DNA of 64,000 nucleotides from a phage: the sequence record PZ445454.1. The stretch is one strand, 5' to 3'. A program made the translations under genes and the position numbers. The stretch's first letter is position 1. Every line of letters starts with the position of its first letter. A model generated the notes under the pieces. That model searched no databases. It was not told where the DNA came from and worked only from the letters and a program-made list of their open reading frames with translations. This document shows positions 1,610-50,832 of this stretch, one piece after another.

Positions 1610-3085
1610 GTGAGAAGAATGGCAGAAATTACAGAAACACAAGAAAGCTTACCACCATTTAGAATGGGTGAAGTAGGTTCTTTGGGTCTGAAGGTTAAGA
1701 ATGGAAGAATCTATGAAGAACCTCGTCAGGCACTAAGGTTCCCTGAAAGTATTAAAACTTTCCAATTAATGATGCGTGACCCTGCTGTAGCAGCATCTGT
1801 AAATATTATTAAGATGTTTGTCAGAAAAGTCAACTGGAGATTCGTACCTCCAAAGGGAAAAGAGCAAGACCCTAAAATGCTTGAAAGAGCAGACTTCTTT
1901 AATTCTTTAATGGATGACATGGAGCATGATTGGGCAGATTTTATTAACTCTGTAATGTCATTCTGCACTTATGGGTTCTGTGTTAACGAAAAGGTTTATA
2001 AGAAACGTCAGGGTAAAAAAGGAAAGTACCAGTCAAAATTTGATGATGGTCTAATTGGGTGGGCTAAATTACCAATCAGAAACCAGTCAACACTTGATAA
2101 GTGGTATTTTGACGAAGACTTTAGAAAAGTTACTGGTGTTAGACAGAATCTGAGAAATGTTTCACATATTGCTGGAGCAATCAATCTCGGAGAAAGACCA
2201 CTAACAAGAAAACTTCCACGAGCTAAATTCATGCTGTTTAAGTATGATGATGAGTATGGTAACCCAGAAGGTCGTTCACCATTACTTAATGCTTATGTAC
2301 CGTGGAAATATAAAGTACAGATTGAAGAGTATGAAGCTGTTGGTGTTTCAAGAGATTTAGTAGGTATGCCAAAGATTGGTTTACCACCAGACTATCTGGA
2401 TGAAAATGCAGAGCCTGAAAAGAAAGCTTTCGTACAATACTGCAAAACTGTTGTTAATGATATGATTGCTAATGACAGAGCAGGTTTAATCTGGCCTAGA
2501 TATATCGACCCAGATACTAAAGAGGATATCTTTGAGTTCTCATTGGTTTCTAGACAGGGTGCTAAAGCATACGATACAGGTTCTATTATTGACAGATATT
2601 CCAAGCAAATTATGATGGCATTTATGTCAGATGTTCTTGCTATGGGTCAATCAAAATATGGTTCATTCTCTCTTGCAGATTCTAAGACAAGCCTATTAGC
2701 AATGTCAGTAGATATTCTGCTGAAGCAAATTAAGAACGTAATTAACCGTGATTTAGTTGCACAGACTTATGCTCTTAATATGTGGGATGATGAAGAACAT
2801 GTACAAATCACATATGATGATATCGAAACTCCAGACCTTGAAGCAATTGGTTCTTATATTCAGAAGACTGTTGCAGTAGGTGCTTTGGAAGTTGACAAAG
2901 AGCTATCTAACAAACTTAGAGAGCATATTGGTCTTCCTCCTGCTGATGAGTCTCAGCCAGTATCTGAAAAGCTTTCTCCAAATAGCCAAAGCCGTTCAGG
3001 AGATGGTTATAAGACCGCTGGAGAAGGTACTGCAAAGACACCTTCAGCGAAAGACCCAAGCACAGCAAATAAGGCAAATAAATAA
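1610..3085 (+). CDS. portal protein
   Basis: 491-aa ORF directly downstream of terminase; size and acidic C-terminus typical of portal; position-based call. Confidence 0.6.
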   Translation: MRRMAEITETQESLPPFRMGEVGSLGLKVKNGRIYEEPRQALRFPESIKTFQLMMRDPAVAASVNIIKMFVRKVNWRFVPPKGKEQDPKMLERADFFNSLMDDMEHDWADFINSVMSFCTYGFCVNEKVYKKRQGKKGKYQSKFDDGLIGWAKLPIRNQSTLDKWYFDEDFRKVTGVRQNLRNVSHIAGAINLGERPLTRKLPRAKFMLFKYDDEYGNPEGRSPLLNAYVPWKYKVQIEEYEAVGVSRDLVGMPKIGLPPDYLDENAEPEKKAFVQYCKTVVNDMIANDRAGLIWPRYIDPDTKEDIFEFSLVSRQGAKAYDTGSIIDRYSKQIMMAFMSDVLAMGQSKYGSFSLADSKTSLLAMSVDILLKQIKNVINRDLVAQTYALNMWDDEEHVQITYDDIETPDLEAIGSYIQKTVAVGALEVDKELSNKLREHIGLPPADESQPVSEKLSPNSQSRSGDGYKTAGEGTAKTPSAKDPSTANKANK

Positions 3086-3585
3086 TGGCTGAAGTTATCT
3101 CTATTTCAAATGCTACACGAGTGCATTCGTATAGGGGCGTACTTATCATTACTGATAAGCTATCTGTAGAGGCTGGCTCAAGGGCCAGCCTTTCAGGTTA
3201 TATTAGTGATGGTGGAACCTCTGACGTTTTCACTATTTGCAGGTTACTTGATGCACCAATGAGTGGAAAACCGTTTATTTCAGGAAATTGTAGTGAAATT
3301 GTTAAAATTCCATTTGACAGTTCATGCCTTTTGGGTGTAAAGTTATATAACTGCGAGAATAAACGTATCAATGTTAATAGCATTGAAGCCGCTTTCATTA
3401 CCCTCGATACTGCATTTCAATCCCCGATGACAGTTAACAAAGATACAAACAGACTTGAATACATTTTTTCACAAAATGATTACAAAGTACTTGTCAAAGG
3501 TAAAGTATATGATATGATTGTAAATGTGGTAGATGAATCTGGTAACCATTCAACAGTCCTTAAACAAAAAGTAAGGTTTAATTAA
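3085..3585 (+). CDS. hypothetical head-module protein
   Basis: 166-aa ORF start-stop coupled to portal gene; no recognisable motif. Confidence 0.45.
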   Translation: MAEVISISNATRVHSYRGVLIITDKLSVEAGSRASLSGYISDGGTSDVFTICRLLDAPMSGKPFISGNCSEIVKIPFDSSCLLGVKLYNCENKRINVNSIEAAFITLDTAFQSPMTVNKDTNRLEYIFSQNDYKVLVKGKVYDMIVNVVDESGNHSTVLKQKVRFN

Positions 3586-3917
3586 TGGGAACATTAACTA
3601 TTGATGGTAAGAATAAAATCCTCGCCACGCTAACCCCAACGACTATTATTTTACACAATGTAGACCCAACGGCAGACCCTACAGCAAATAAGGTTACTCA
3701 GCCAGTGGCTATTTATTTTTCTGAACCGGATAATGGCTTAATTGCCTCAGAAGACACAGTTAATATTACTGTTCCAGCTTCTGCAACGGTCTCACACTAT
3801 AGCTTGTGGGATGCTAACGATAAATGCGTGGCAACTGGTGCTCTTAGCAAACCTCAATTCTTTGCTGAAGAAGGTATCTATGTTATCTCTTCAGTCTCTG
3901 TAGATTTAAACAAATAG
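3585..3917 (+). CDS. hypothetical head-module protein
   Basis: 110-aa ORF, ATG overlaps previous stop. Confidence 0.45.
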   Translation: MGTLTIDGKNKILATLTPTTIILHNVDPTADPTANKVTQPVAIYFSEPDNGLIASEDTVNITVPASATVSHYSLWDANDKCVATGALSKPQFFAEEGIYVISSVSVDLNK

Positions 3918-46366: not shown

Positions 46367-46388
46367 GGGTCTCTTCGGAGACCTTTTT
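46367..46388 (+). terminator. rho-independent terminator (UUCG tetraloop)
   Basis: gggtctc-ttcg-gagacc then TTTTT. Confidence 0.65.
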
Positions 46389-46407: not shown

Positions 46408-47604
46408 ATGAACAAAGTACAGATTATTAAAAAGAATGGCTCACTCGAAGAACCTGATATCAAAAAAGTTTTAGCAGCAGTCACAAAGTCAGCTAATAGG
46501 GTTGGGTATAGAGAACTCCCACCAGATGTTACCCAAGCTCTTGAGTCAGCATTTATGAGGATTCTGGTAAAATCCACTAAGCAGAATAACTTGCTCATCT
46601 CGGTAAATGATATCCACAGTATCGTTGAAGGTGCTTTGGCAGAAGTCAATCACGAGATTTATGAGTCTTACTCAACATACAGAAATTACCGTAAAGAGGT
46701 TGCTCAAAATTGGGATGAACTCTACCAGAAGACTAAAGATACACTCTTCTTAGGTGACCGTGAAAATGCTAACTTTGACAGTAGTTTAATTTCTACGAAA
46801 GGTTCAATTATCCGTGGTTACCTGACTAAAGAAATCTTTAAACAGTATCATCTAACACCAGAGGAACTTGAAGCCATTGAGAAAGGCTTTATCTATATCC
46901 ACGATTTGAGAGACCTGATTTTTGGTGGTATTAACTGTTGCCTGTTTGACATTGGTAAAGTCCTGAAAGGTGGCTTTGAAATGTCTGGCATCGAATATTG
47001 TGAACCAAAGTCTGTGCTGTCGGCCTTACAGGTTATTGGTGACGTAGTTCTTTCAGCAACTGCACAGCAATTTGGTGGCTTTACTTTAGCAGAGATTGAT
47101 AAGGTACTTGTGCCGTATGCTAAGAAGTCTCTACGCTACCATGCTGAGAAAGCAGCATCTTATGGTATTCCTAAAGAACATTACCATAATTATGTCATGG
47201 AGCAGCTACAGCTTGAATTGACTCAAGGTTTTCAATCACTTGAAATGAAACTAAACACTGTACCTTGTAGCCGTGGGGATTTTGCATTCACAACTTTGAC
47301 ATTTGGTTTACTTGACTCAGATATGTCTAATGAAGACAACCGGCTACAATACATGATTGCAAGTACTCTCCTAGATGTTCGTATGAATGGACAAGGTAAG
47401 AGCAAGAAGCCTGTTGTATTCCCTAAACTGGTTTATATCTATGACCAGAAGAGACATGATGAAAATATCTGTCAAGGTCACCTGTACAGTAAAGCCATTG
47501 AGTGCTGCTCTAAAGCAATGTATCCAGATTTCTTAAGTGTATCTGGTCATGGTGCTGTAGCAGAGGCTTTTGAGCGTTCTGGTAAGGTTATTTCACCGAT
47601 GGGT
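46408..47604 (+). CDS. nrdD: anaerobic ribonucleoside-triphosphate reductase, exon 1
   Basis: N-terminal ATP-cone; ORF ends ...VISPMG then stop; joins in frame to exon 2 giving SPMG-CRAFL. Confidence 0.65.
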
Positions 47605-48346
47605 TAACAGGCTCTATAGCTCATCTAAAACGTGCCTAAACAGGGAAACTCTACAGATGTAGACAATCCTGTGCTAAATGATGTAAGATGTAAGAAACTA
47701 TATAACATAGGAGTATTACATGCCAAATTATCATGTTACTGAAGACGGAAGAGTCTTTAGAGAAAATGGTGTAGAGCTTACACAGTGGAAATCCAACACT
47801 GGGTATATGAAAGTAAAGTTTTACGGTAAGAAGAATCGTGACATGTATGTCCATAGGTTAGTTGCTGAGAAATATGTACCTAACCCAAACAATCTTCCAA
47901 TTGTAAAACACAAAGATGATAACAAACTGAACAACCATGCTTCTAACTTAGAATGGGGAACTCATTCTGAGAATGTTAAAGAAGGTTATGAGAACGGTTG
48001 CTACAAGTTTTGTAAGCGTTCATATGCTGTGAAGGCTACACACAAAGTGACAAAAGAAGTTATTGCTGCCAAGTCAATACGAGAGTTATCCAATATACTC
48101 GGATATAATCGCAAGACTATCTCTTCAATATTGAAGGGTGTAAAAGAGCATAATAACTTTGAACATGAATTTGAATACATCTAAATGCCGAACGACTAAC
48201 CGTGATGAATGTAGCGGTGTAGGGTCAAGCGACTCGAAATGGTACGCTACTTAGAAATAAGTAGAAGATATAGTCTGGACTTACTGGTGACAGTAAGCAG
48301 CTTGGATAAAGCGGGGTAAGCGTAGCGAACTTGCCTGAACAACAAG
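47605..48346 (+). mobile_element. group I intron (candidate) interrupting nrdD, carrying HNH endonuclease ORF
   Basis: 5' exon ends in T; 3' part has short helices with GNRA-like loops (ctactt-agaaat-aagtag; ttactg-gtga-cagtaa), P7-like gact/agtc elements and terminal G before exon 2; boundaries approximate. Confidence 0.6.
47720..48184 (+). CDS. HNH homing endonuclease (intron-encoded)
   Basis: NUMOD4-like YHVTEDGRVF; HNH region HRLVAEKYVPNPNNLPIVKHKDDNKLNNHASNLEWGTHSEN; C-terminal HTH-like SIRELSNILGYNRKTISSILKG; RBS AGGAG. Confidence 0.65.
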   Translation: MPNYHVTEDGRVFRENGVELTQWKSNTGYMKVKFYGKKNRDMYVHRLVAEKYVPNPNNLPIVKHKDDNKLNNHASNLEWGTHSENVKEGYENGCYKFCKRSYAVKATHKVTKEVIAAKSIRELSNILGYNRKTISSILKGVKEHNNFEHEFEYI

Positions 48347-49294
48347 TGTAGAGCATTTTTATCACCATACCATAACGAAGATGGTGAAGAGTTTTATGTA
48401 GGTCGTGCTAACATTGGTGCTGTGTCTTTGAACTTACCAATGATTTACCAGTATTCTAAAGAGAATGGTTTAGATTTCTGGAAAGAGCTTGATAAGTACC
48501 TAGAGATGATTCGTAGTTTCCACAAGAAACGCTATGAAATGATTGCCAATATGCCAGCAAGTTCTAACCCTCTTGCATTTACACAAGGTGGTCTGTACAA
48601 AGGAACTAAGAAGCCTACTGACAGGGTTGGTTGGGATATTGTGAAGTCCTTCACAGCTTCTTTTGGGGTTACTGCGCTTGATGAGCTATCTGTTCTTGCT
48701 GAAGGTAAACGACTTCATGAAGTTGGAAGTTATAGTTTTGCATATGATGTTCTGGCATACATCAACATGAAAACTGAAGAGTTTAAAAATGAAGATGGCT
48801 TCTTATATGCCGTCTATGGTACTCCAGCAGAATCACTTTGTGGAACTCAGCTAAAACAGTTCAGAGAAATGTTTGGTGTTATCAAAGGTGTTTCTGATAA
48901 GGAATATTTTACAAACAGTTTCCATATGAATGTTGCAGCAGACATCTCACCATTTGAGAAGCAGGACTTAGAAGAACCATTCTTCCATATCTGTAGAGGT
49001 GGCAGAATCCAGTATGTAAGGGTAGCTAACCCAGAAAACTTAACAGCACTTAAAAGTTGTATTACAAGAGGGATGTTGAAAGGTTTTTATCAGGGACTTA
49101 ACTTTGACTTAGCAATCTGTGAACATTGTGGTAACAGACCAAAGGCTGATGTCGAAGAATGTGAGGTTTGCCATTCACATGATATCTCTGTGATTAACAG
49201 GGTGTGCGGATATCTGGGATGGACTAAGATTAAAGGTGAATCCCGAATGAATGATGCAAAAATCGCTGAGATTCGTGACAGGATTTCTATGTAA
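48347..49294 (+). CDS. nrdD: anaerobic ribonucleoside-triphosphate reductase, exon 2
   Basis: glycyl-radical motif RVCGYLG near C-terminus; zinc-ribbon cysteines CEHCG...CEVCHS; frame open from about 48347. Confidence 0.65.
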   Translation, partial: CRAFLSPYHNEDGEEFYVGRANIGAVSLNLPMIYQYSKENGLDFWKELDKYLEMIRSFHKKRYEMIANMPASSNPLAFTQGGLYKGTKKPTDRVGWDIVKSFTASFGVTALDELSVLAEGKRLHEVGSYSFAYDVLAYINMKTEEFKNEDGFLYAVYGTPAESLCGTQLKQFREMFGVIKGVSDKEYFTNSFHMNVAADISPFEKQDLEEPFFHICRGGRIQYVRVANPENLTALKSCITRGMLKGFYQGLNFDLAICEHCGNRPKADVEECEVCHSHDISVINRVCGYLGWTKIKGESRMNDAKIAEIRDRISM

Positions 49295-49448
49295 AACTTG
49301 ACAAGATGGTGTGGGTCTTGATAGGCTTACATCACCTTTTTTATTGGATGTTAGATATGGCAGAGAGTATTATTGGGTTGTTCATAGGTTCTGTCTTACT
49401 AGGGTTCTTTTTAGGACTCTCTTATTGTGAATTGAGAGATAAGTTAAA

Positions 49449-50346: not shown

Positions 50347-50832
50347 ATGAATTACATGGAGATTCGACCATTTGACACAGCTAATGGTGAAGGGGTTCGT
50401 GTAAGCCTCTTCGTAGCTGGCTGTAAACATCACTGTGAAGGATGCTTTAACAGGGAGTCTTGGAAGTTTAATGCTGGTAAAGAGTTTACCTATGCAAACC
50501 TCTACGGCATCATTAAGTTAATGGATGATAATGCTATCAGTGGGTTGTCAATACTTGGTGGGGAGCCTCTGGATGACAGAAACATTCAAGAGGTCACCAA
50601 CATATGCAAGCGTATTAAAACTGTTTATCCAGAAAAGTCTATATGGCTTTGGACAGGTTTTCAACTGCACGAAAAAATCCACTTAGATGTGATGAAATAT
50701 GTTGACGTGGTGATTGATGGTAAGTATGATTCATCTAAACCAACAGTTAAACCATATCGTGGTTCTGATAACCAAAACCTCTGGAGAAAAGAGTATGGAT
50801 GGCAAGGCGATTGTCAGTGGAGAGCAGAGTGA
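50347..50832 (+). CDS. nrdG: anaerobic ribonucleotide reductase activating protein (radical SAM)
   Basis: CKHHCEGCFN radical-SAM-type cysteine cluster; about 160 aa. Confidence 0.65.
   Translation: MNYMEIRPFDTANGEGVRVSLFVAGCKHHCEGCFNRESWKFNAGKEFTYANLYGIIKLMDDNAISGLSILGGEPLDDRNIQEVTNICKRIKTVYPEKSIWLWTGFQLHEKIHLDVMKYVDVVIDGKYDSSKPTVKPYRGSDNQNLWRKEYGWQGDCQWRAE

Follow-up and report, generated by a model that had tools for sequence, protein, structure and literature searches.

The anaerobic ribonucleotide reductase gene (nrdD) of this Felix O1-like phage is very probably interrupted by a mobile intron of group I, subgroup IA2, that splices itself and sits in phase 0 between the codons for Gly399 and Cys400, directly before the codon of the catalytic cysteine. 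The 742-nt insert covers positions 47605 to 48346 of the window (the whole 64-kb stretch of phage DNA analysed; features are on the plus strand unless stated otherwise), and its assignment draws on the Rfam family RF00028, covariation and comparison with intron-less relatives.

Exon 1 (46408..47604; codons 1–399) encodes the ATP-cone and the N-terminal half of the class III ribonucleotide reductase (RNR) barrel and ends with GGT (Gly399). Exon 2 (48347..49294; codons 400–714) opens with UGU for Cys400, the radical cysteine; the Zn-site cysteines 657/660/671/674 lie in it too, as does Gly687 of the motif RVCGY. The unspliced DNA presents these exons as two open reading frames (ORFs): one of 399 aa (46408..47607) with the C-terminus ...VISPMG followed by a stop, and one from 48422 to 49294, whose frame is open from 48347 on and starts CRAFLSPYHNEDGEEFYVGRANIG. 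Joining 47604 to 48347 yields a protein of 714 aa and about 81 kDa with a single stop that aligns end to end with solved structures (9d3x, E 9e-78; T4 NrdD 1h78, E 1e-75). The Pfam NRDD profile is divided between the exons, with positions 1–250 in exon 1 and 264–560 in exon 2, and the exons also match the Pfam ATP-cone and Gly_radical domains. Residues C400, G687 and C657/660/671/674 align to T4 C290, G580 and C543/546/561/564. In the class III reductase, 288-MGCR-291 forms the finger loop's tip (PMC4493059), and it is with Cys290 in this MGCR tip that Cys400 aligns. The activating radical-SAM enzyme NrdG, the functional partner of spliced NrdD, is encoded at 50347..50832 (Pfam Fer4_12, E 2e-43, and Radical_SAM). 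Hence, with a contiguous NRDD domain, the radical cysteine, the glycyl-radical motif, the Zn Cys4 site and the activase, the joined product is a class III ribonucleotide reductase NrdD.

The locus is bounded by two hairpins, both of which carry terminator annotation in phages wV8 and Meda. Upstream of nrdD, a GC-rich hairpin flanked on either side by T runs (46368..46383, without strand assignment) corresponds to the terminator of the preceding unit, and a hairpin scan places a terminator-like hairpin right after the nrdD stop codon (49307..49334). The aerobic reductase gene nrdB, and probably nrdA too, lies directly upstream of the locus.

The junction 47604|48347 is fixed because in intron-less relatives, including wV8 and FO1a, the sequence runs uninterrupted as ...ATGGGT|TGC... 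at the insertion point. In wV8 the sequence is ...CCGATGGGT TGCAGAGCC..., collinear with exons 1 and 2 of the window; the intron-less site of this type reads ...CCGATGGGTTGCAGAGCCTTCTTATCTCC..., and the spliced junction as deduced is ...CCGATGGGT|TGTAGAGC.... The original prediction had proposed a split nrdD joined at 47604|48347, with an upstream ORF ending in VISPMG, a downstream frame open from about 48347 and a C-terminal RVCGY; the joined-protein alignment and the intron-less alleles bear out each of these points, and the alleles place the insertion exactly where it had been put. From the DNA comparison alone the boundary could be shifted by one base (T47605 = T48347); only the group I rules, a U before the 5′ splice site and a G before the 3′ splice site, decide between the two placements. 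The insert opens with an in-frame TAA stop codon and ends with a terminal G (omega-G) at 48346. An intein was considered and rejected, as the insert starts with this TAA and contains further stops in the nrdD frame.

Both splice sites can be paired with an internal guide sequence at 47611..47624, which consists of GCUCUAUA (47611–47618, P10) followed by GCUCAU (47619–47624, P1). In P1, the last six nucleotides of exon 1, AUGGGU (47599..47604), form six of six possible pairs with the guide, including a U·G wobble between U47604 and G47619 at the 5′ splice site; the P1 pairing is kept in all six aligned introns. In P10, the start of exon 2, UGUAGAGC (48347–48354), pairs with GCUCUAUA at eight of eight positions. 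P10 covaries in Vibrio phage F88, where UGCCGAUC and GAUUGGCA likewise form 8/8 pairs from different sequences. P2 is absent from the window intron, in which P1 has just 6 bp.

The remaining helices follow in group I order. The 5′ strand of P3 (CGUGCC, 47631..47636) pairs with GGUACG at 48241–48246; all cells of this helix are paired in the covariation test described below, and three of its six pairs are changed on both sides. The P4-P5 domain (47640..47672), with P4 formed by ACAGGG/UCCUGU and P5 by UCUAC-AGAU-GUAGA, shows compensatory changes and appears in the minimum free energy (MFE) fold. P6 (GC) and P6a (GAUGU) have their 5′ strands at 47673..47684 and their 3′ strands (ACAUC of P6a, then GC of P6) at 48177..48188; the latter overlap the end of the endonuclease ORF, whose last codons and UAA stop make up these strands. 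The 5′ strand of P7 (GACUA, 48194..48198) is invariant in the six aligned introns, fits the Rfam consensus AGACUA...AAGAUAUAGUC and pairs with UAGUC at 48271–48275 in a pseudoknot with P3. In group I introns, P7 is the helix that binds guanosine. Two hairpins, P7.1 (48199–48218) and P7.2 (48222–48235), occupy 48199..48235 according to alignment, covariation and fold, with P7.2 covarying from GGG/CUC to GAA/UUC. Such extra hairpins between P7 and the P3 3′ strand mark subgroup IA2 (Michel & Westhof), and the window intron, which has both and aligns here with the T4-like nrdD intron, belongs to this subgroup. The P3 3′ strand (48241–48246) and the GAAA-capped P8 hairpin (48247–48264) fill 48241..48264. 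J8/7 (AAGAUA) and the P7 3′ strand (UAGUC), together at 48265..48275, are an exact fit to the Rfam consensus GAAGAUAUAGUCU. P9 with a GUGA loop (48280–48297), P9.1 (48300–48312) and P9.2 (48315–48335) complete the 3′ region (48280..48335); the P9.2 pairing survives G-to-A changes among Felixounavirus alleles. The short GNRA-capped helices and terminal G that had been noticed in the 3′ region correspond to the P8 loop GAAA, the P9 loop GUGA and G48346. In the window copy all core helices pair perfectly, and when the core, trimmed of the ORF, was folded without constraints, the MFE structure contained P3 to P9.2 as well as the 8-bp P10 (z −3.2).

Covariance-model searches with the Rfam group I intron family, as envisaged in the original prediction, gave a graded picture. 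A scan of the whole 64-kb window at the gathering threshold returned no Intron_gpI match: the curated gathering score of RF00028 is 50 bits, and the window copy gives two partial matches, 48012–48297 (38.9 bits) and 47640–47737 (17.5 bits). The score is below the threshold because the 465-nt ORF in P6a splits the match and not because the core is missing. The 3′ half of the intron alone has an Intron_gpI E-value of 2.2e-6 against the whole window, and natural ORF-less copies from the phages ECOH1 and RPN213, with cores 98.1% and 99.5% identical to that of the window, pass the cut-off with 54.2 and 60.4 bits.

A covariation test was applied to the P1 and P3–P9.2 structure on six introns from three lineages. 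With a structure that was derived from the same six sequences, and with just three independent lineages among them, 97.3% of cells were paired compared with 31–40% when partners were shifted, 21 pairs were changed on both sides compared with 1–5 in the shifted controls, and none of 500 shuffles reached these values. P10 was checked for each sequence by script, since the columns of P10 and of the 3′ splice site came out misaligned in MAFFT. Another alignment, with a Vequintavirus intron added, misaligned P6a and P8 and was left out of the pair counts; this intron was judged by its own MFE fold. Together, P1 with its U·G, the omega-G with P10, and the P3–P8 core with the P3/P7 pseudoknot argue that the insert is a group I intron; the earlier assignment to this class thus gains support from the ORF-less Rfam scores, the P1 and P10 pairings and the covariation. 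From these features we infer that the intron is spliced.

Most GenBank records of this locus annotate two separate nrdD coding sequences (CDSs) plus a homing endonuclease, and one could read them as a split gene without splicing, in which an endonuclease cassette broke nrdD and two separately translated products come together as a working enzyme. An RNR that is split yet functional is reported for Aeromonas phage Aeh1, where mobE splits nrdA (PMC3653736, PMC7344957), and in phage CB7 one insert with an HNH ORF failed to splice (PMC7344957). We nevertheless regard a split gene as very improbable here, given that the ORF has a complete group I core around it, that ORF-less copies score above the Rfam threshold, and that the P1 and P10 guide pairings match both exon ends exactly. 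Moreover, exon 2 offers no in-frame ATG, GTG or TTG ahead of the GTG at 48422, 25 codons past Cys400, and a separate product starting there would lack Cys400 and the next 24 residues. The ribozyme is also 98–99% conserved even where the ORF has been deleted, whereas at synonymous sites the ORF of the window is about 35% different from that of the phage Alf5.

Nor is it at all probable that the intron has decayed, with inefficient splicing and nrdD a tolerated pseudogene, dispensable given the phage's aerobic NrdAB. The missing P2 and short P1 would fit such decay, and with nrdB (and probably nrdA) upstream the phage may do without the anaerobic RNR in the laboratory. Against this, both window exons are open and 92–97% identical to intact intron-less genes, the changes being mostly silent, and the substitutions among alleles preserve pairing in a core that is perfectly paired.

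The ORF looped out of P6a (47720..48184) encodes a 154-aa protein of the I-HmuI type. An AGGAG ribosome-binding site (RBS), annotated as such in Meda, lies 6 nt upstream of its start (47709..47713). The protein matches Pfam HNH_3 with 40.2 bits (cut-off 24.8; E 2.6e-10), the structure of I-HmuI (PDB 1u3e) over aa 3–145 with E 1.1e-9, and PHROG 59 with E 9e-44; these three results agree with its earlier identification as an HNH homing endonuclease. The HNH motif aligns as HKDDNKLNN...NLEW with HKDGNKDNN...NLRW of I-HmuI. With the domain threshold exceeded and the similarity nearly full-length, the protein is assigned to the I-HmuI-like HNH homing endonucleases; its activity and cleavage site are inferred. 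I-HmuI is a nicking enzyme. Between alleles, the gene has a dN/dS of about 0.08, which indicates that the protein is under selection. In T4 introns a hairpin sequesters the RBS of the endonuclease gene; folding of 47676–47745 gave −9.1 kcal/mol (z −0.65) and no support for such a hairpin. Likewise, a scan for sigma-70-like sites found seven where 9.6 are expected by chance, which leaves an internal promoter for the gene unsupported.

Mobility is suggested by the distribution of alleles. A query with the spliced exons matched 244 records, and alleles were classed in a sample of these. In Felixounaviruses the site is found in three states: intron-less, with an ORF-less intron of 292 or 315 nt, or with the 742-nt intron and its ORF. 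The intron of phage skuden is 100% identical to the window copy. At least two ORF deletions, in ECOH1 and RPN213, arose independently and left the ribozyme core intact. Furthermore, an exon tract just downstream of the intron (48347..48403), which includes the P10 exon strand UGUAGAGC, is associated with intron presence: it carries 9–12 differences per 60 nt from every intron-less allele and 1–2 from every intron-bearing allele, the differences being silent substitutions. The tract varies in length, being shorter in L036, and segregates with the intron across otherwise discordant backgrounds. For example, intron-bearing Alf5 and intron-less CL1 share a divergent block at nt 721–1140 and differ in the exon tract. 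A tract that accompanies the intron is as expected from homing and may represent co-conversion, although linked ancestry in place of repeated co-conversion could in principle produce the same pattern. Presence and absence at one identical site, combined with apparent flanking-exon co-conversion, point to a mobile intron.

The independent deletions in ECOH1 and RPN213 indicate that the ORF is dispensable, and an inactive intron HNH protein has a precedent in T4 I-TevIII (PMC2988022). Accordingly, one might picture an intron that splices and whose HNH protein is inactive or re-purposed, for instance as a maturase or regulator, its distribution reflecting vertical descent and losses. This we consider unlikely, though less so than the absence or decay of splicing: the low dN/dS, the alignment of the HNH motif residues with I-HmuI and the linked exon tract, found in different lengths on discordant nrdD backgrounds, all favor a mobile intron.

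In the mechanism that we propose for this mobile intron, translation of exon 1 on the pre-mRNA would stop at once at the UAA that forms the first triplet of the intron. P1 would arise from pairing of the guide GCUCAU with AUGGGU at the end of exon 1, placing the U·G at the cleavage site, and GCUCUAUA would make P10 with UGUAGAGC at the start of exon 2, while the P3–P9 helices with their P3/P7 pseudoknot would fold around the guanosine-binding site in P7. In the first step, an external guanosine would attack after U47604. In the second, G48346 would take the same guanosine site and the freed end of exon 1 would attack after G48346. Ligation of ...SPMG to CRAFL... would restore the MGCR finger loop; an active class III reductase cannot form otherwise, and splicing would therefore be needed. 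The HNH protein would be translated independently from its own AGGAG and, in a mixed infection, is predicted to nick or cut nrdD alleles that lack the intron. Repair of the break would then transfer the intron, together with a few tens of exon 2 bases, to the recipient (homing).

The closest known locus is that of Salmonella phage Meda (MH586731), which is about 95% identical and has the same insertion site, the 154-aa HNH ORF and its RBS. The Meda record already gives nrdD as a two-part joined CDS with the HNH gene in between, and the genome announcement states that an HNH endonuclease interrupts nrdD and then mentions "another intron" (Microbiol Resour Announc 2019, PMC6486253). Neither source gives the structure or class of the intron, the logic of its splice sites, a survey of alleles or experiments. 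For Felix O1 itself, the genome paper lists no introns (PMC3185647), in agreement with the intron-less allele of FO1a, a strain of the same species.

The T4 nrdD (sunY) intron, to which the insert was originally likened, interrupts the same host gene, is of subgroup IA2 with P7.1 and P7.2, and has an identical 6-nt P1 guide, GCUCAU. Over the aligned core it is 74.7% identical to the window intron, and P7-P7.1 is identical. However, the T4-type intron interrupts codon 180 in phase 1 (AYE|YEVN), equivalent to codon 280 of the window gene and about 120 codons upstream, and its ORF, which lies after P9 and carries a homing endonuclease annotation, encodes I-TevII, a GIY-YIG protein of 258 aa, in contrast to the HNH protein in P6a (PMC2988022). 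Orthology of the two introns was rejected, since insertion site and endonuclease both differ. Thus, the part of the analogy that concerns a related group I ribozyme in the same gene holds, while site (codon 280 as opposed to 399|400) and endonuclease are other than in T4, and the window intron is a relative of the T4 ribozyme at a different site.

Other systems share parts of this arrangement. The T4 td intron, which encodes I-TevI, is an IA2 intron with the ORF looped out of P6a, like the window intron; the 3′ halves are about 70% identical, with a similar P9.2 and tail (GGGGUAAG...CUUAUCUGAACAUAAUG), whereas td differs in its thymidylate synthase host gene, its GIY-YIG endonuclease and the presence of P2. 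For the HNH protein, the closest solved relative is I-HmuI from the DNA polymerase intron of Bacillus phage SPO1 (PDB 1U3E). Both proteins have the HNH motif and a C-terminal helix-turn-helix-like tail and are encoded in phage group I introns, although host gene and ribozyme of the SPO1 intron are unlike those of the window. A Vequintavirus (filed as "Campylobacter phage A142") and the Vibrio phages F88, F93 and F101 have nrdD introns at the same MG|CR boundary. These introns are 762 and 819 nt long, carry the GCUCAU guide and have an HNH ORF in P6a (47% and 39% protein identity). Their cores are homologous to the window core (about 78% identity for F88), and P3, P4, P5, P8, P9 and P10 covary. 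These copies are either unannotated or annotated as separate CDSs.

Judged by its kind, the element is a real but ordinary phage element that involves no new mechanism and is already annotated in Meda. Its value lies mainly in annotation: most of the approximately 90 Felixounavirus records with the insertion list two truncated "nrdD" proteins and not one 714-aa enzyme, and the exact join 47604^48347 corrects the gene model.

The relationship to the T4 intron raises a broader, tentative possibility, which we hold at somewhat below even chances: that one IA2 lineage, marked by the identical P7-P7.1 24-mer and the guide GCUCAU, may have colonised two sites in nrdD as well as recT and terL of unrelated phages, with a different endonuclease family in a different loop each time. 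The 5′ exon ends at the two nrdD sites are AUGAGU (T4-type codon 180) and AUGGGU (Gly|Cys site). If this reading is true, it would imply ectopic transposition of the intron to a look-alike 5′ exon followed by swapping of endonuclease genes, and the intron at the Gly|Cys site would be a cross-family mobile element of Felixounavirus, Vequintavirus and Vibrio phages that targets the catalytic cysteine codon. As it stands, the locus adds an example of an intron sitting exactly at the codon of a catalytic residue, and it offers a clean natural series of what appears to be the homing-endonuclease life cycle, from empty sites through an intron with an ORF under purifying selection to ORF deletions in which the ribozyme is kept.

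The anaerobic ribonucleotide reductase gene nrdD of this phage is interrupted, and ORF layout, Pfam domains and the joined product all agree on this with the original prediction. The first ORF (46408..47607; 399 aa) ends in ...VISPMG followed by TAA and carries an ATP-cone and NRDD profile positions 1-250; the middle ORF (47720..48184; 154 aa) matches HNH_3; and the third (48422..49294) belongs to a frame open from 48347, where it starts CRAFLSPYH... and continues through NRDD positions 264-560 and Gly_radical. When 47604 is joined to 48347 the product is a protein of 714 aa, and class III reductases of solved structure, T4 NrdD among them, align to it along its entire length. The intron-less wV8 allele reads ...CCGATGGGT TGCAGAGCC... 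where the window reads ...CCGATGGGT|TGTAGAGCA..., and it is exactly collinear with both exons, with the insertion point at the expected place. By DNA comparison alone the junction is uncertain by one base, because the intron's first T equals the first T of exon 2. With the group I rules (U before the 5′ splice site and G before the 3′ splice site) the splice sites are 47604|47605 and 48346|48347, so that boundaries first drawn by eye are upheld by wV8 and by these rules. From its sequence, the insert is very probably a genuine group I intron that carries an HNH homing endonuclease gene and is spliced out of nrdD; that it is currently mobile appears likely, at somewhat lower confidence.

Alignment to a T4-like NrdD equates window Cys400 with T4 Cys290 and Gly687 with Gly580, and Cys657/660/671/674 align to the zinc site; by this alignment the intron is positioned between the G and C of MGCR. 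No ATG, GTG or TTG start codon occurs in exon 2 upstream of 48422, and a C-terminal piece translated separately would therefore lack the catalytic cysteine. Both this and the ribozyme kept intact in alleles that have lost the ORF speak against a split gene of the Aeh1 nrdA type that would work unspliced, and we consider such a split gene highly improbable. The intron's first triplet (47605-47607) is an in-frame TAA, so ribosomes on exon 1 would stop at the splice site and not inside the ribozyme. In a Vequintavirus copy of the intron, termination comes two codons later than in the window.

Several lines of evidence identify the insert as a group I intron. An Rfam scan of the window at gathering thresholds gave no match. 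In E-value mode, Intron_gpI matches 48012-48297 (38.9 bits, with the exact GAAGAUAUAGUCU J8/7-P7 consensus) and, in a second part, 47640-47737 (17.5 bits; P3-P6). The former, at E 2.2e-6, is the sole match to an RNA family anywhere in the 64 kb; window 1-64000 contains no second group I signal and, according to ARAGORN, no tRNA genes. In the Felixounavirus alleles ECOH1 and RPN213 the short insert is this intron minus its ORF (core identity to the window 98.1% and 99.5%), and these copies score 54.2 and 60.4 bits, respectively. Thus, the covariance-model check proposed earlier is passed by the ORF-less copies, which exceed the curated cut-off of 50, whereas the window copy falls below it.

The assigned structure comprises P1 (exon AUGGGU with guide GCUCAU, a U.G pair at the splice site), P3, P4, P5, P6, P6a, which holds the ORF in its loop, P7 in a pseudoknot with P3, the IA2 hallmark P7.1 and P7.2, P8 with a GAAA loop, P9 with a GUGA loop, P9.1, P9.2 and the terminal G at 48346. 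The GNRA-capped helices and final G noticed originally are accordingly P8, P9 and G48346. Pairing is canonical at all pairs in the window copy. When six ORF-trimmed introns representing three lineages (Vibrio phage F88, Felixounavirus and a T4-like nrdD intron) are aligned, 97.3% of cells pair. Moving the partners 1-3 columns out of register lowers this to 31-40%. Changes on both sides are seen in 21 pairs, compared with 1-5 in the shifted controls, and none of 500 shuffles reached these values. Unconstrained MFE folding of the trimmed core recovers the assigned helices plus an 8-bp P10 (z -3.2), which joins exon 2 UGUAGAGC to intron GCUCUAUA and directly adjoins the P1 guide. In F88, P10 covaries with the exon (UGCCGAUC with GAUUGGCA; 8/8 pairs).

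The SPO1 polymerase intron encodes I-HmuI, an HNH endonuclease that nicks DNA. Residues 3-145 of the 154-aa protein match it (PDB 1u3e; E 1.1e-9), HNH motif included, and there is a match to PHROG 59 as well; together with Pfam HNH_3 this bears out the HNH assignment. An AGGAG site lies 6 nt 5′ of the start codon, and the last codons and UAA stop of the gene supply the 3′ strands of both P6a and P6. A dN/dS of ~0.08 in comparisons between ORF-bearing alleles indicates purifying selection on the protein; synonymous sites differ by up to 35% and the ribozyme is 98-99% identical, so the ribozyme is constrained much more tightly than silent coding positions.

No introns were reported in the Felix O1 genome (PMC3185647), which fits strain FO1a of the same species, whose allele has no intron. 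Later genome papers describe a "split nrdD" with a homing endonuclease, not termed an intron (PMC4837284, PMC3728262). The announcement of Salmonella phage Meda treats the insert as an intron (PMC6486253), and its GenBank record already joins the two exons in one CDS around the HNH gene. Another, ORF-less intron is reported in the Meda DNA polymerase gene; no counterpart to it is detectable in window 1-64000. One BASEL Felixounavirus is listed with one intron. As a kind of element, and in annotation, the intron is therefore already known. No account of its structure, evolution or experimental study was found, and what is added here is its exact boundaries, secondary structure, placement at the catalytic cysteine, three allelic states, exon tract and same-site relatives in other phage families.

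The analogy drawn with the T4 nrdD intron holds for the ribozyme (L003, the T4-type locus: IA2 architecture, guide GCUCAU, identical P7-P7.1, 74.7% core identity) but not for site or endonuclease: the T4-type intron interrupts codon 180, equivalent to window codon 280 as opposed to 399|400, and carries the GIY-YIG enzyme I-TevII after P9 (PMC2988022). The T4 td intron resembles the window's in its ORF-in-P6a layout and 3′ tail. At the very same MG|CR boundary, introns with an HNH ORF in P6a are found in one Vequintavirus record ("Campylobacter phage A142"; L013, about 2870-3640) and in Vibrio phages F88 (L006, 2388-3206), F93 and F101; the HNH ORFs of A142 and F88 are 47% and 39% identical to the window's. 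An ORF-less intron at this boundary is present in a 137-kb Vequintavirus contig from IMG/VR (L019). These same-boundary introns in other phage groups have no annotation or are annotated as separate CDSs. Records MG065662, MG065664, MG065668 and MG065674, UNVERIFIED and labelled "Campylobacter phage A1xx", hold Felixounavirus- or Vequintavirus-like coliphage sequences ~95% identical to the window nrdD exons; judging by these sequences, host mislabelling or contamination is likely.

The 24-nt P7-P7.1 sequence GACTAACCGTGATGAATGTAGCGG recurs exactly in other IMG/VR viral contigs. In the recT-like loci (L017, L018, L020, L021, L031, L032, L035, L037) the downstream exon encodes RecT (Pfam E 1e-29 for L017; visual assignment for the rest), with a GIY-YIG endonuclease ORF upstream; the host gene in L022 is that for the terminase large subunit (terL). 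The shared 24-mer thus places the same ribozyme lineage in other genes with other endonucleases. Tentatively, one lineage might have transposed between two sites in nrdD and entered recT and terL as well, swapping endonuclease genes.

The spliced coding sequence was set against nine relatives, one 60-nt window at a time. At the start of exon 2, the first 60 nt show 9-12 mostly silent differences from every intron-less Felixounavirus allele compared but only 1-2 from every intron-bearing allele, against a background of 0-7 per window outside this tract. Intron-bearing Alf5 and intron-less CL1 have a common, strongly divergent block (CDS nt 721-1140) but are unlike in the tract, so it is the intron, not the background of the gene, that the tract follows. 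In contig L036 (IMG/VR) the intron is present and the tract is shorter. At exon position +3 the intron-linked U completes P10, where the intron-less C would make a C.A mismatch. The tract is what would be expected as the footprint of homing with one-sided co-conversion.

The Alf5 and CL1 block (47128-47547) has 8-23 differences per 60 nt, and a 12-difference patch at 48793-48852 (CDS nt 2041-2100) is common to ECOH1, RPN213 and VpaE1; such mosaicism of nrdD among Felixounaviruses indicates recombination events that have nothing to do with the intron. Between nrdD and nrdG lies a variable hot spot: directly 3′ of its intron-less nrdD, VpaE1 has a free-standing MobE-like HNH homing endonuclease gene (L009, 2778-3314), at a site just after window 49294, and Alf5 and RPN213 have a different 336-nt ORF directly 3′ of nrdD.

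The locus is 97% identical in Escherichia phage skuden and 92-96% in many Felix O1-like phages (genus Felixounavirus). A 600-nt query made of the two joined exon ends matched 244 phage records. Among the matches listed there are three allele classes: one uninterrupted 600-nt match (intron-less, including wV8, FO1a and VpaE1), two pieces 292/315 nt apart and two pieces 742 nt apart. We estimate ~60 records with the full 742-nt insert, ~30 with a short one and ~150 with none, duplicate RefSeq/GenBank entries counted in. The short introns of ECOH1 (L001, 1801-2115) and RPN213 (L002, 1801-2092) each have an internal deletion, matching window region 47685-48176, that took out the HNH ORF and spared the ribozyme. 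In ECOH1, ATGCCAAA is retained and runs directly into the final ~40 nt of the ORF, and the RPN213 deletion begins directly 3′ of the P6a 5′ strand; as their end points differ, the two deletions had separate origins. Both alleles represent natural stages of the homing cycle, in which the endonuclease is gone and the intron is retained.
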